Shown here in pieces: positions 46,521 to 53,431 of a DNA stretch of 64,000 nucleotides; positions within the stretch are counted from its first letter, which is position 1, and each line of letters starts with the position of its first letter. The stretch comes from Acetobacter sp. 46_36 (lineage in GTDB: Bacteria > Pseudomonadota > Alphaproteobacteria > RF32 > CAG-239): contig MNTT01000014.1 of assembly GCA_001917135.1 (NCBI GenBank), forward strand, positions 73,620 through 137,619, in the 5' to 3' direction. The notes beneath the pieces are model-generated. The model searched no databases. It saw nothing but the letters and a program-made list of their open reading frames with translations, and was not told the DNA's origin. A program made the translations under genes and the position numbers.

Positions 46521-47498
46521 TTACTTAAGTGCAGGAATGTTCAGTTGCGCAAAGTGTCCGGGCTTTATTTTAACTGTAGCATAACGCAAATTGTCCGTTT
46601 CTATCATATATTCTTCACGCCCGGTAAGTTGCGCAGCCAGCTTATAAAAATCTCTGCCGTTTAGTTCCTGTTTATACCAATTCATCAGATAAAAAACACA
46701 GGCCTGGCTTTTATCTGTAAGGCCGCAGCGCGGACGCCCCGAAGGTACGTCCGGATTGGTTACGACACCTTCCAATCCGTAGTTTTCAACCTTTTGCGAC
46801 GAAAACATTGCTTTTCCGGTAAATAAACCGATAATAAGGCATAAACCTGATGCAATAAACAGCAGCTTCTTTTTTACATAACTTCCGTTGTCTGCATATG
46901 TGTCTTCAATATCTTCATCGACACCATAATCAAGCTCCGGCGGCAATCCGTCAAGAATATAAGAACTGTCATATTCTGCGCCGGCTGTCAGATTTTGGGC
47001 ATCAACGGCCTTAATAATTTCCGTGCTTTGTTTAAGTTCTTCATGCAAGTCGTTCTCCAGTACGCCGGAAACTTCGCTGCGTGACTCAATGTCTGTCGAC
47101 GCTGAGCTTTCCCTCGCCGGAGCGTTGTCTGCAGAACTTTCTGTCTGCTCTTTTGCATTTGAGTTGGGGGTTATTTTAGTTTCTGTCTCTGTCGGAAGAT
47201 GGGGAGCTCCATTTGTACCTGATGCCGGAAATTCTGTGCCGGTATATCCGGCAGCCGGAGATACTGAAATATTTCCGACCGTATTTTCTGACAGTATTGC
47301 CGCTTGTGGCATTATTTTGGCCGGGGCGGCCGGAATATCAGACATAGGGCGAATTTTAGGACGCTTTATTTTTCTGAGCTTCGGACGAAAAGCCGGAACA
47401 GCATCTGAAACATTGTTACCCGCATCATTCTGCGGCACAGATGCTGAAGTTGCCGCTGGATTGTTTGTAATTAAACTGTCCAAACTGTCATCTTCCAT
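46521..47498 (-). CDS. Hypothetical bitopic membrane protein: about 210-aa disordered P/S/T/A/E-rich cytoplasmic region, one TM helix, about 100-aa periplasmic domain with 2 Cys.
   Basis: TM LLFIASGLCLIIGLF; no recognisable family; last gene of the secretin-containing cluster. Confidence 0.5.
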   Translation of the reverse strand: MEDDSLDSLITNNPAATSASVPQNDAGNNVSDAVPAFRPKLRKIKRPKIRPMSDIPAAPAKIMPQAAILSENTVGNISVSPAAGYTGTEFPASGTNGAPHLPTETETKITPNSNAKEQTESSADNAPARESSASTDIESRSEVSGVLENDLHEELKQSTEIIKAVDAQNLTAGAEYDSSYILDGLPPELDYGVDEDIEDTYADNGSYVKKKLLFIASGLCLIIGLFTGKAMFSSQKVENYGLEGVVTNPDVPSGRPRCGLTDKSQACVFYLMNWYKQELNGRDFYKLAAQLTGREEYMIETDNLRYATVKIKPGHFAQLNIPALK

Positions 47499-47510
47499 TT
47501 GCTTTCCCCG

Positions 47511-48800
47511 TTAAATTCTGTTTTTAATTTTTTCGTCAGTCTTCAGCATTCTGACTAATCTTGGTACGATATAAACAATCGTTTCGGTTCCCTGTGCCGC
47601 TGGGCCGAAGATTTCGCTGGGCAGCCCGATAATAAGAAAGTTTTCACCAAGTTTGTTGCGTACCTTAAATTTGGTAATTTCTCCCTCCGTCGTATCCAGC
47701 GTAATTTCAGAATATATACGGTTATTCTTTTCCATTCCCGCTTTAGCCAGAATTGACAGCGGATATTCCATATTATCATGTTTTCCGCAGCGTCCTACGT
47801 CAAAACGGGAAAACCAGCGGGTCGGAACAATGAAACGCCCTTCTGAAATATCTTGGACAGTGGCGTATTTGCCAACGAATTTTCGCAGCTGCTCCAGCGA
47901 AATGTCATTCGTAACGGTCAAGATTCTGCCGATAACTCCGGTTTGAGCCGTTGCAATGCTGCCGAATTTAAAATCCTTCAACAAATCGTTCCAAACCACG
48001 CCGCAAGGCTCTTTAGCAATCACTCTGAAAACGCTGACATCATACATAATCATTGTCGGGTTGTCTTCAAAGTCATTAATCAGCTCGTTAATCTTATCAA
48101 TAGTTTCCAAATTGGTTTCAAATGTTATGGTATAATCCCGCCAATTGGTAACCATATCCGTAATTCCCGTTCCGCGCAAAACGTCCAAAAAACCGAGCAT
48201 AAGCGTTCTGGAGTTTGGTGCGTAAAGGGTAAAGCTTGCTCTTCTGCTTAAAATAAGAGAGTTTGTTTTAGCATCATAACGGTAAAACAAATCCGCCGAG
48301 TGGGATACCATCTCAACGACTTCTTTAAAACTGCCGTTCAAATTTTTGCCATAAAGCGCCGGATAAGGAGCGTCTTTGGCAACAAGTGTGATACCGGCTT
48401 CCTCTGTCAGCTTAAATAAAGCCTGCTCGGCTGGGATGTTGTCAAACGTAAAATTCCTCACCTCAAATTCAGGCAGAGCATCATTTACGTCATTGCGGTC
48501 AATTCGGAAAGATACATTGTTGTGCGGAAGAATCTGTACCATTTCCTGCGTCTTCCAATTAACATTGCAGCGCAGCGGCGTTTCTAAATCCAAATCATTG
48601 GCGCGAAACGTTGTCCGCAGCATATAAGGATTTTCTTGCGGTAAAATCATAAAATTATCCGTAGCGCTTCCGTTTACGGTCGTATTGGTAATAACCGTTT
48701 CTCCGTCGCTTTGATAAGCGTTGCAGGAAATAACCGCCAGCAGAGAAAGCAATAAAAAATATCCTTTTTTAAATTTGAAAAAACTAAATTTATTCATCAT
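47511..48800 (-). CDS. Secretin-like outer-membrane lipoprotein (PF00263-like C-terminal half). Start at MMNKFSFF; lipobox LAVISC. Track ORF extends to 48935.
   Basis: Secretin-domain entry motif IMYDVSVFRVIAKEPCGVVW (compare Q-V-L-I-E-A-x-I-x-E-V...LGV-W). C-terminal TETIVYIVPRLV resembles the secretin terminal E-L-x-I-F-I-T-P-x-I-V. Lipoprotein signal peptide. Confidence 0.45.
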   Translation of the reverse strand: MMNKFSFFKFKKGYFLLLSLLAVISCNAYQSDGETVITNTTVNGSATDNFMILPQENPYMLRTTFRANDLDLETPLRCNVNWKTQEMVQILPHNNVSFRIDRNDVNDALPEFEVRNFTFDNIPAEQALFKLTEEAGITLVAKDAPYPALYGKNLNGSFKEVVEMVSHSADLFYRYDAKTNSLILSRRASFTLYAPNSRTLMLGFLDVLRGTGITDMVTNWRDYTITFETNLETIDKINELINDFEDNPTMIMYDVSVFRVIAKEPCGVVWNDLLKDFKFGSIATAQTGVIGRILTVTNDISLEQLRKFVGKYATVQDISEGRFIVPTRWFSRFDVGRCGKHDNMEYPLSILAKAGMEKNNRIYSEITLDTTEGEITKFKVRNKLGENFLIIGLPSEIFGPAAQGTETIVYIVPRLVRMLKTDEKIKNRI

Positions 48801-52300: not shown

Positions 52301-52377
52301 TAGCGTTGTGCCACCAGAATCGGGGCTTCTTCCCCGCTGTTGTCACTGCCGAATTCTGCGTCATTTAAATTTTCCAC
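49342..52377 (-). CDS. 1011-aa hyper-acidic repeat protein with no TM or signal peptide. N-terminal about 330-aa domain has duplicated IASQxSIxxxLEG heptad-like segments. RTFGEEH x3 is followed by a KKKRRKKKKNR patch. Four DDLDF(T/A/V)LP(E/D/N) repeats. C-terminal DWEWEYV x2.
   Basis: Repeats read directly from the translation; D/E/S/N-rich low-complexity composition. Confidence 0.6.
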   Translation of the reverse strand: MENLNDAEFGSDNSGEEAPILVAQRYLNIFRQVHIFNKAKRDEFDEELLSLPQNITDFFKRMPGGRLLVEHIEKVKTERGIAFVKANREDFDEGAGKTDTPTPVATGGVVQMAGGSITLDPSFAETLAQSLANAFKQLPATSSSSLQPGGNTTVTADFGNAFDVIADEIRTSRASLLDVLKETRSITDSVIASQVSISRILEGILSSRTRDDNDVADLNSRIIASQASITKLLEGLYTANNKKNTEISDYLNVENRLQSFRNEIKDEISLSLQQMQDMFKEYAQTVNDRKVVIETVAQPFPADMEKAPNGSNFQQNIPPVYKKENTAEADTPNIKSSAIKPLSEDEKRIATTDIPAGMHARSDDDTPLHFEPVTNLGDAPILSSERTFGEEHSFGEERTFGEEHKKKRRKKKKNRENQTDAINSSPQQPSSPQISQAAQQPAAIISDKASAAPKHAENRTDNQRIPQAFGGTIRNTAYKYDDNFDHIRLDVPPLEENIFTEQPETEKDDLTARLNSLDNLYDETNTVGGYSTHTSNNITNDSIDDPILNHSVSFGSDDLDFVLPNGSQQNAAKSPARVNSNEEGNSPRNQNNDNSKERIASIDDLNGDDLDFALPDGIPEQDFSATEDFSAGFADISNKEPANTNETSFSDDLNFSLPEKDFSLTEDEHDGQRNEAAVSSRQTADVPEIPSDDLDFTLPENISSAEGIDALSQFMSQSLAKQQAQEENAGSSNFDEDVFHSLSQKNTNEENTGEDTLQSFSKENADTESITAAPLPASDGISAFDTRQEILTPTNETEDLDSLLASDSTSADMLLNQDAVSSHPQHTDFESQGILPQNETTSDDAADDTGTAASQQERPSRYSAELDKIRAALTADSVDISSLNEPIALDEYSDDENVGKDSDTLVNDKQVMSDSDDYSKASAHFSDGSDYVQSQQISSVAVSKSPSNVLDAAASGTVADTAQETAEDGEDWEWEYVDENGNEIPAGEDEDWEWEYVEDDGEEDKPDNNKQ

Positions 52378-52441
52378 GACCCCAACCCTTACATAAATTT
52401 ATAAATTACATAGAAACATATATCATTCCCGCAAAGGGATT

Positions 52442-53431
52442 TTACAAGGCAATGTCTACAACTTTATGAATTTTTTTAAAGTCGTCATTGCTGAAGTATA
52501 TCCGCTCTTCGGGGTTCCACATCAGCCCGTACAGCTGTCCCGTTTCATCTTCCCTGACGCTGACGACAAAAGCCTGTTGTTCTGTTTTATAATACAAGGC
52601 AATATCGCCGACACTGGCAACTTCGCTTGGTGCTATGAACATGACGGCACGGTTTGACAAAATAGAGCCTAACCGTCTTGTGCAGAGGCTGACGCCGTAA
52701 ATATCCCGTTTGTCATACAGATTTGCCGGCTTTACGGCTTCTTTTGAAGAAGAACTTCTGTCAACGACAATAGAGCCGTCCGCTCCTGAAATGCCGAAAA
52801 CCGGAACTTTCAATGCTTCTAAATCAACAAAATTGCCACTGTGCTCATTGGCCGGCCGTCCCATATTGCCGACTTTGTATTTTGTATCGTTATGTGCAAT
52901 AATTTCTTCCAGAGCGCCTTCGGCATCCAGTCTTTTGACTTCTTCTTTCAGAGTATCGACTTCCATTCCCAAAGCCTTGGCAATACTTTTATATTCTTTG
53001 TCGGAAACTTCTCTTTGTCCCATCTCGATTCTGTGGTATACAGACAAAGTCATATCCGCATTTTCCGCAACTTCTATAAGGGTCAGAGATTTGTCGTTTC
53101 TGATATATCTCAATGCGGCTCCCAAAACTTTCAGTCCGCTGCTCTTATTAATTTCCTGTCTGCGTTCCTGCTCTTTTTTCCATGCCATGACAACATCATG
53201 CTGCGAATTTTGTTCGTTAACATACAAATCCTGCAAAGAGCAGTCTAAGACTTCAGCAACCAAAATCAGCTGTTCCTGGTTAAGCCTTCTGTATCCTTTT
53301 TCTATTTTGGAAATGGCGGAAAGGCTGATGCCAAGCCTGTCGGCCAAATCCTGCATGGAAACGCCGCGCATCTTGCGGTTAATTCTGATTTGGTTGGGAA
53401 ATACGATTTCTTCCATAGCTTTATACCTCAT
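52442..53431 (-). CDS. XRE-family transcriptional regulator with two HTH_XRE domains and a C-terminal LexA/CI S24-like domain (catalytic competence not established).
   Basis: HTH1 MRGVSMQDLADRLGISLSAISKIEKGYR; HTH2 SLTLIEVAENADMTLSVYHRIEMGQREVS; C-terminal beta-rich region with S24-like spacing. Confidence 0.65.
   Translation of the reverse strand: MRYKAMEEIVFPNQIRINRKMRGVSMQDLADRLGISLSAISKIEKGYRRLNQEQLILVAEVLDCSLQDLYVNEQNSQHDVVMAWKKEQERRQEINKSSGLKVLGAALRYIRNDKSLTLIEVAENADMTLSVYHRIEMGQREVSDKEYKSIAKALGMEVDTLKEEVKRLDAEGALEEIIAHNDTKYKVGNMGRPANEHSGNFVDLEALKVPVFGISGADGSIVVDRSSSSKEAVKPANLYDKRDIYGVSLCTRRLGSILSNRAVMFIAPSEVASVGDIALYYKTEQQAFVVSVREDETGQLYGLMWNPEERIYFSNDDFKKIHKVVDIAL

Follow-up and report, generated by a model that had tools for sequence, protein, structure and literature searches.

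A highly derived lipoprotein of the secretin superfamily, with apparently shortened gates, in a conserved gene module of uncultured alphaproteobacteria

What does a secretin do in a bacterium when none of its usual partners is encoded beside it? The question is raised by a cluster of five genes in a stretch of 64,000 nucleotides (nt) of contig MNTT01000014.1 (Acetobacter sp. 46_36), hereafter called the window, where a secretin-like lipoprotein gene lies close to an array of VirB6-like genes. A preliminary description of this DNA, made from the letters alone, had listed five co-oriented genes for a regulator, an acidic repeat protein, a small protein, the lipoprotein and a bitopic membrane protein, and had proposed that the lipoprotein could be an outer-membrane conduit connected with the neighbouring type IV secretion system (T4SS). 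All five open reading frames (ORFs) are indeed present, on the minus strand, as follows.

52442 to 53431, minus strand: regulator with two helix-turn-helix (HTH_XRE) domains, 329 residues, the first gene of the module
49342 to 52377, minus strand: acidic protein C1a, 1011 residues
48790 to 49287, minus strand: p165 (C1b), 165 residues
47511 to 48800, minus strand: lipoprotein of the secretin superfamily, 429 residues (the longest ORF, 47511 to 48935, would give 474)
46521 to 47498, minus strand: predicted bitopic inner-membrane protein C3, 325 residues

The answer that is favoured here, with a probability of about one half, is that the lipoprotein would form an outer-membrane ring acting as the portal or anchor of a non-classical apparatus, that C3 would tie this ring to the cell wall in the window's clade, and that the function of the lost gate would have been taken over in some other way.

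The start of the lipoprotein had to be corrected. The length of 474 residues given in the preliminary description is an artefact of taking the longest ORF, which begins with a GTG and shares 146 nt with the upstream gene. The 120 closest homologues are 384–439 residues long, mostly about 413–436, and begin with MNK or MMNK. Since both the lengths and the N-termini of these homologues agree with it, the real start is placed at the ATG at 48800 (MMNKF...). The resulting form of 429 residues carries the lipobox LAVIS/C26, and the stop of the p165 gene overlaps its start by 11 nt.

The models that would usually identify a secretin are silent on this protein. In Pfam and NCBIfam, with E-values up to 1, neither the 474- nor the 429-residue form matches PF00263 (Secretin), PF03958 (Secretin_N), STN or the PilN, GspD and PilQ models. 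No NCBIfam match to the PilN-family model TIGR02520 or to any other named secretin equivalog was obtained for the window protein, ten diverse members of its family have no secretin model above threshold, and PDB searches with the lipoprotein sequence alone or with a profile of its close homologues returned no relatives. The absence of a Pfam match can be traced to three deletions that fall within the Secretin region. Homology is borne out by three other lines of evidence, from structure comparison, from intermediate sequences and from profile alignment. The AlphaFold2 monomer model has a mean pLDDT of 68, with values of 70–90 over most of residues 100–420, and the eight long strands expected of the double barrel are all predicted. 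When this model was compared with the PDB by Foldseek, the top 48 matches were all secretins, led by the Vibrio cholerae PilQ (6w6m, E 4.1e-11) and BfpB (9u5s, E 4.6e-11) and including InvG, GspD, pIV and RcpA. The matched set spans barrel-only entries (6pee, 7ofh, 8odn) as well as entries holding only N-domains (5ngi, 4e9j, 3gr5). The TM-scores are low (0.13–0.27) because a free monomer model is compared with protomers taken from assembled rings.

The intermediate sequences were obtained with phmmer, by searching 1.8 billion cluster representatives exhaustively, which returned 155 relatives. Full-length relatives (about 400 residues) are found down to 21–23% identity. More distant and longer ones (E 1e-12 to 1e-4) are PF00263-positive lipoprotein secretins with an STN domain, one of them fused to a TcpQ domain. 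The closest PDB relative of these PF00263-positive intermediates is BfpB (E 5e-34), and the best annotated relative, on a plasmid, is encoded within a type IVb-like pilus operon together with an ATPase and a platform gene of the T2SS-F family. When 34 sequences of the family were aligned as a profile with 35 secretins, hhalign gave a probability of 100% and an E-value of 1.3e-42 over columns 79–419, from the segment preceding N0 through the last barrel strand. On the grounds of profile alignment and predicted fold, the 429-residue lipoprotein is thus a true, highly derived member of the secretin superfamily, as the preliminary description had suspected.

Its architecture points to a particular branch of this superfamily. 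The lipidated C26 is followed by a linker containing an invariant C78, then by N0 (about 113–193), N3 (about 198–246) and the secretin domain (about 249–419). There is no N1, N2 or S domain, and the chain ends 10 residues past the last barrel strand. BfpB shows the order LG, N0, N3 and secretin, without an S domain, and lipoprotein secretins require no pilotin (PMC12531336). The lipoprotein therefore has the type IVb-pilus architecture of BfpB, TcpC and PilN, the equivalence of its linker with LG being positional only.

The secretin domain itself departs from this model at the gates. In pIV of phage f1, Gate 1 corresponds to G267–G297 and Gate 2 to D321–N335 (PMC8563730). The gates were mapped by adding pIV, whose sequence was checked against PDB entry 7ofh, to the secretin alignment and running hhalign again. 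Gate 1 is reduced from 31 residues in pIV to 12 in the family: its hinge glycine, G267 of pIV, aligns with the near-invariant G336, and pIV residues 273–291, the loop tip sealing the pore, have no counterpart. Gate 2 is reduced from 15 residues to three, 14 of the 15 pIV residues being without a counterpart. The conserved C-terminal VPFLSKIPLIGLLF motif (VPxLxxIPxxGxLF) is deleted as well. Both gates of the window protein are thus shortened, unlike those of canonical secretins.

These deletions are mirrored by the overall dimensions of the domain. The hinge glycine and the conserved glycine preceding the last inner strand are separated by a median of 48 residues in the family (range 46–54), as compared with 86 for canonical relatives and 80 for pIV. 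The secretin domain as a whole comprises 158 residues, versus 218 in canonical relatives (about 60 more) and 210 in pIV. In the secondary structure of the AlphaFold2 model, the long strands are all present; a two-residue turn (371–372) stands at the position of Gate 2 and a 14-residue loop at that of Gate 1. Two cysteines are invariant across the family, C338 inside the Gate 1 stub and C78 in the N-terminal linker, and they may be joined by a disulfide bond. The f1 protein is comparable in being a small secretin that combines N0 and N3 with a double-walled barrel. It differs from the window protein by its complete gates, by not being a lipoprotein and by working with the pI/pXI ATPase complex, and the window locus is chromosomal and devoid of phage genes.

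Do the neighbouring genes provide a machine for such a ring? One genome per species was scanned with an alignment of a 12-sequence subset as the query, and further contigs were taken from assemblies. The scan of one genome per species gave 58 loci, all in uncultured alphaproteobacterial metagenome-assembled genomes (MAGs) from human, ruminant, rodent and termite guts and from sediments. Synteny was deduced by ORF calling and BLAST clustering from 61 loci, representing about 0.98 Mb of neighbourhood DNA, in which the secretin is 23–99% identical to the window protein. The core of the module recurs in these related loci, in the conserved order dual-HTH regulator, C1a, p165-like protein, secretin. 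In 40 loci the regulator (cluster C2) immediately precedes the module, and in 51 of the 61 the p165-like gene stands immediately before the secretin. In the minimal form seen in the most distant loci (L042, L048 and L052–L054), only a p165-like protein of 101–147 residues precedes the secretin. Since dozens of genomes show this gene order, the five-gene arrangement is more than a chance grouping. Other features are less widespread: C3 is confined to the window's clade and a few relatives and does not occur in the distant loci, and the acidic tail of C1a and the VirB6-like neighbours are confined to the window's clade. All carriers of the module are uncultured Rickettsiales-like alphaproteobacteria, living in the guts of animals and termites and in sediments.

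The search for filament genes in the same DNA gave essentially nothing. The five-gene cluster of the window contains no ATPase, platform or pilin gene, and no TcpQ match was found among the cluster proteins when a periplasmic partner of the BfpG/TcpQ type was sought. In the 0.98 Mb around the 61 members, there is no credible prepilin and a single T2SSE-like ORF, which lies in L054 on the opposite strand, at a distance of 9 kb. The secretin is therefore a lone one, as first described, with no type II secretion system (T2SS), type IV pilus, Tad, type III secretion system (T3SS) or phage partner in the window cluster. The accompanying statement that no ATPase, pilin or platform gene is present holds for the cluster and, apart from the L054 ORF, for the 61 loci; it does not hold for the window as a whole, which has a VirB11-type ATPase at 2123–3103.

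In 22–24 distant loci, a different pair of genes follows the secretin directly on its 3' side and on the same strand: a lolC/E-like permease (FtsX and MacB_PCD domains) and then a lolD-like ABC ATPase, at about 11200–13300 in most of them (L034, L036, L039, L042, L046, L048, L051, L052, L054, L056 and L059 are among these loci). This adjacency could reflect ancestral synteny with lipoprotein sorting, or the secretin could be functionally linked to a MacB-type transporter.

Sequence divergence adds another dimension to the conservation of the module. Non-synonymous divergence (dN) was compared in three genome pairs; only dN was used because synonymous divergence (dS) is saturated. The ranges obtained are as follows.

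p165: dN 0.07–0.09
Regulator: dN 0.09–0.14
Secretin: dN 0.12–0.18
SPOR gene: dN 0.25–0.31
NagZ-like GH3 gene: dN 0.39–0.44
VirB6-like gene of 1030 residues: dN 0.39–0.53

The regulator, p165 and secretin genes thus evolve 2–6 times slower than the flanking housekeeping genes, and the regulator is 82–91% identical in relatives whose NagZ-like neighbour is only 51–63% identical. Such rates indicate strong purifying selection on these three genes, extending to the barrel region of the secretin. As this trio is among the most constrained genes of the region, a decaying relic is argued against.

The partners of the secretin provide few clues by similarity: when all five proteins were scanned against Pfam, NCBIfam and PHROGs, the HTH domains were the only families recognized. 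C1a (pI 4.2, 19.6% Asp plus Glu) has no signal peptide, transmembrane (TM) or hydrophobic segment. Its N-terminal domain of about 90 residues (...YLNIFRQ..., with invariant N28, F30 and Q32) is kept in the short C1a proteins of distant loci (about 251–284 residues, pI 5–6), which are homologous to the N-terminal 90–260 residues or so of the acidic protein. The tail that follows is hyper-acidic, disordered, lineage-specific and highly variable. The protein is acidic, as the preliminary description stated, and what was described there as repeats turns out to be a set of short motifs rather than long tandem units: DDLDFxLP occurs four times, DWEWEYV twice and ERTFGEEH-like motifs three times. One to four copies of DDLDFxLP are found in C1a orthologues, and the end of the tail (window 49342–49480; L001–L030) reads [DE]WEWEYV(D/E)ENGN-x(8-15)-[DE]WEWEYVEDD in nearly all of them. 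From their sequences, these tail motifs look like short linear binding or targeting motifs. Searches of Pfam, NCBIfam, PHROGs and PDB found no relative of C1a.

p165, the most constant partner of the secretin gene, is small and acidic. Its helical core spans about 85 residues, Y49 and D57 are invariant, and there is neither a signal peptide nor a TM segment. It too has no relative in Pfam, NCBIfam, PHROGs or PDB. In its PDB profile search, the best three matches covering the core were all to CesA, a T3SS filament chaperone (E 0.07–1.3 over 68 residues). These are not significant, and are retained as a lead that p165 could be a small chaperone of the helical-hairpin type. As both C1a and p165 are devoid of signal peptides and TM segments, they are presumably cytoplasmic.

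For C3, the earlier picture of a bitopic protein with a long disordered cytoplasmic arm stands: a basic N-terminal motif (PKLRKIKRPK) opens a low-complexity, disordered region (residues 1–205), which is followed by a single hydrophobic segment at about 208–233 and by a periplasmic domain of about 90 residues with a beta-alpha-alpha-beta arrangement and two invariant cysteines. Homologues were collected with the full-length query, the C-terminal fragment alone having given 12 fragments. The periplasmic domain gives weak LysM-fold matches, TsaP among them. A LysM assignment at sequence level was rejected, since a Pfam scan of 13 members was negative and PF01476 was not matched; the C3 profile had no match in the PDB. 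FimV and HubP, which like TsaP are secretin-associated LysM proteins of type IVa pilus systems, also combine a periplasmic domain of the peptidoglycan-binding type, one TM helix and a long, acidic and disordered cytoplasmic part. C3 differs from TsaP, FimV and HubP by the lack of a LysM recognizable in its sequence, by its inverted topology (N-in, C-out) and by its absence from distant members of the family; its cytoplasmic part also has no TPR or FimV C-terminal domain. Because it is absent from the distant loci, any peptidoglycan tethering would not be general to the family.

The regulator is the best-defined of the partners. Its two HTH_3 stretches (PF01381, residues 15–69 and about 103–160) score 89.5 bits against a cut-off of 23 (E 1.4e-25), which confirms the dual HTH assignment. 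The S24-like tail that had been attributed to it was not confirmed: Peptidase_S24 is not among the 26 Pfam matches, and the profile of the C-terminal domain (about 140 residues, conserved, from no known family) retrieved no LexA, CI or UmuD chain from the PDB. The S24 idea was dropped because this tail profile gave nothing relevant there.

The five genes look like a transcriptional unit. With the start at 48800, the intergenic distances from the regulator to C3 are 64, 54, −11 and 12 nt, which replaces the spacing of 7–60 nt previously given. The signals at the two ends are the following.

46436 to 46458, both strands: bidirectional hairpin resembling a terminator, with a 9-bp stem, located after C3 and before a convergent gene of 74 residues
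53645 to 53676, no strand assigned: perfect palindrome CTTTGGCAAA-N12-TTTGCCAAAG, within the 301 nt that precede the regulator gene

The 11-nt overlap, the short gaps and the terminal hairpin are the signs of an operon. The hairpin stem has 6 GC pairs, with T-runs on both strands, and this terminator-like element would close the five-gene unit. On the other side, 301 nt separate the regulator from the upstream VirB6-like gene; they hold a weak promoter-like site, the palindrome, for which 0.01 matches are expected by chance in the window, and an extra TTGCCAA copy at 53460–53472 beside the promoter-like site. The palindrome is a candidate operator. It was not retained as a conserved one, as it recurs solely in contigs of the same species, and this conservation within the species only makes the evidence for an operator weak.

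These elements can be assembled into a working model. After Sec export and Lol sorting, the lipoprotein would multimerise in the outer membrane, without a pilotin, to a ring with a double wall. C3 would anchor this ring to the cell wall in the window's clade, much as TsaP and FimV serve PilQ. The ring would be the outer-membrane portal of an apparatus other than an ATPase-driven T2SS, type IV pilus, T3SS or phage machine encoded at the locus. Because the usual central gate is missing, its lumen would have to be shut in another way or be occupied all the time, for example by a permanently docked partner or by the N-terminal segment, a candidate plug tethered to the Gate 1 stub through the C78–C338 pair. 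The regulator would control the operon, and C1a and p165 would act as cytoplasmic regulatory or scaffold partners rather than as cargo of the secretin. The proximity of VirB6-like genes would be a matter of clade-specific gene order, not a sign of shared function. Since the partners belong to no known family, the lipoprotein is viewed as a stripped-down version of a known pore and not as part of a described secretion system. A bolder version would make the family the ring of an undescribed envelope apparatus of gut-associated Rickettsiales-like bacteria, in which a gate-less secretin works with C1a, p165 and the regulator in place of the filament set, and hence a new class of secretin system alongside T2SS, type IV pili, Tad, T3SS and filamentous phages; this can be offered only tentatively and is rather unlikely.

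Several points weigh against the proposal of a portal or anchor ring. Ring formation and the channel itself are extrapolated from homology. The monomer model is moderate, with pLDDT below 50 at residues 29–95 in addition to the modest mean and TM-scores quoted above. The gate deletions depend on a profile alignment at 14% identity, the length deficit being independent of alignment detail. The negative result for pilus genes covers the neighbourhoods of the loci, so that a distal type IV filament system could be using this secretin. C3 does not extend to the more distant loci, and the operon status is a prediction from overlap, gaps and hairpin.

The alternative that survives best is that this is the secretin of an ordinary type IV filament machine (a type IVb, Tad or competence pilus, or a T2SS), with the ATPase, platform and pilins encoded elsewhere and with neighbours that are unrelated or regulatory. 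It is regarded as unlikely. In its favour, the nearest Pfam-positive relatives are lipoprotein secretins of the type IVb-pilus kind, the plasmid relative mentioned above sits in a pilus operon with ATPase and platform, and the lack of a pilotin is no obstacle for a lipoprotein. BfpB of EPEC, TcpC and R64 PilN share with the window protein the lipobox, a linker in the LG position, N0 and N3 as the only N-domains, the lack of an S domain and full-length homology through intermediates. In the window, a bitopic inner-membrane protein is encoded just downstream of the secretin, as is BfpC, another such protein, in the bfp operon. What distinguishes the window protein from these three is the lack of any Pfam or NCBIfam match, a domain shorter by about 60 residues, the cut gates, the missing VPxLxxIPxxGxLF motif and the invariant C78 and C338 of its family. 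Deletion of both gates and of the C-terminal motif is unlike any solved pilus or T2SS secretin. In addition, the 61 loci, surveyed within about 10 kb, offer the L054 T2SSE-like ORF as their only filament-type gene and keep their non-pilus partners throughout, and the periplasmic partner, ATPase, platform and pilins expected of such systems are lacking at the window locus.

A second alternative takes up the original suggestion that the ring works with the VirB6-like array and the T4SS, as an extra conduit or docking ring, the hyper-acidic protein being the exported substrate. The window does contain T4SS genes, at its left end:

15 to 2024, plus strand: C-terminal part of a TrbI/VirB10-like protein, E 9e-30
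2123 to 3103, plus strand: VirB11-size ATPase of the T2SSE family, 326 residues

In a longer contig (L067, 1–10981), the VirB10-like protein is 1442 residues long, with several beta-flower repeats (PF21784/PF21785), and is preceded by an ORF of more than 2195 residues without Pfam match. This VirB10-like/VirB11 region is an unusual T4SS core. The assembly index lists the VirB11-like protein of this species in over 9000 blocks. Next to the module, three of the upstream multi-TM proteins score 17.6–25.8 bits for TrbL/VirB6, just under the cut-off of 25.9, and the array has no VirB3 or VirB4 directly upstream. The 1030-residue VirB6-like protein (53733–56825, minus strand) also has a weak Bflower_2 match at residues 985–1029 (E 0.0015); the presence of Bflower_2 in VirB6-like and VirB10-like proteins hints at a module shared between the two T4SS loci.

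The case for this second alternative lies in the adjacency of the module to a multi-TM VirB6/TrbL-like paralogue array in a window that also encodes VirB10/TrbI-like and VirB11-like proteins. Wherever the secretin is at least 37% identical (L001–L033, L065), the module is immediately preceded by VirB6-like genes in the same orientation, unless the contig ends first, and one and the same clade combines this adjacency with the acidic tail and C3. T4SS signals are often located at the protein C-terminus, where the acidic tail carries its conserved [DE]WEWEYV tandem. Against this, VirB6-like genes are lacking from about 25 more distant loci that keep the regulator, C1a, p165 and the secretin, and the co-occurrence amounts to a single-clade event confounded by shared ancestry. 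None of the five module proteins has a Vir-family match in Pfam or NCBIfam, and the VirB10-like protein of these bacteria, a beta-flower fusion, is itself atypical of VirB-type systems. With its VirB10-like and VirB11-like genes, the genome already supplies the T4SS with an outer-membrane core subunit, and no T4SS is known to use a secretin. The 301-nt gap with its promoter-like site separates the array from the module. Lastly, C1a lacks both a signal peptide and a TM segment, and it is not evident how it could enter the periplasm, from which a secretin would take it; the suggestion that it is the secretin's cargo is unsupported. Beyond an adjacency limited to one clade, nothing ties the module to the T4SS; the proposed functional tie is unsupported, and a joint operation of the two is improbable.

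Outside the window's clade, the position of the VirB6-like genes is taken by unrelated genes. In L034 (4254–6502), L036 (3904–6400) and L039 (3538–6100), two secreted proteins are encoded upstream of the regulator on the same strand, a Ser/Thr-rich and then a Cys-rich one, of 440–490 and 300–390 residues, with no Pfam match. Secreted Cys-rich proteins are found upstream in L034, L036, L038 and L039. These upstream genes (clusters C27 and C28) were considered as divergent VirB6-like genes and rejected, their products being secreted, Cys-rich proteins with 0–1 TM segments and no Pfam match.

A third alternative dispenses with the channel: the protein would be a structural ring or landmark linking the outer membrane to the cell wall, or the relic of a type IVb pilus kept for envelope integrity or regulation. 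The loss of the gates and of the conserved motif, the shortened domain, the absence of all motor and fibre genes from the locus, the resemblance of C3 to a cell-wall anchor and the very slow evolution, which suits a housekeeping structural role, would fit such a function. It is still very improbable, given that the eight long strands of the double barrel are predicted to be retained, that the barrel region is strongly constrained and that a pure relic would not evolve 2–6 times slower than its housekeeping neighbours. Last, a filamentous prophage remnant with a pIV-like secretin and an RstR/CI-like repressor is essentially refuted: the regulator matches PHROG repressor families and, below cut-off, NCBIfam phage_RstR (57 versus 80 bits), and one GenBank record labelled 'UNVERIFIED: Bacteriophage sp.' carries the cluster (L065, MT835708.1, from human faeces), but this unannotated record is a misclassified bacterial contig (GC 51%) with the same synteny of three VirB6-like genes followed by the five-gene module, the chromosomal flanks are fixed across species, Pfam and PHROG scans reveal no Zot/pI ATPase, coat or replication genes, and the secretin is nearer to the BfpB type than to pIV.

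A secretin family that is conserved by strong purifying selection, is devoid of most of both gates and always has neighbours from unfamiliar protein families would imply either a new way of gating or using the pore or the recruitment of secretins into an undescribed system. Its carriers are abundant, uncultured alphaproteobacteria of human and animal guts that are functionally almost unstudied. Because the family escapes both Pfam and NCBIfam, it is annotated everywhere as 'hypothetical protein' only, which a dedicated hidden Markov model would fix; nothing describing this lipoprotein family was found in the literature on RF32 and on Rickettsiales MAGs with secretins.

Two further features of the window are worth recording. 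The recF, dnaN and dnaA genes lie together at 8275–12219 on the minus strand, probably marking the chromosomal origin region. A bacterial small signal recognition particle RNA is found at 35986–36080 on the plus strand (Rfam, 63.5 bits).

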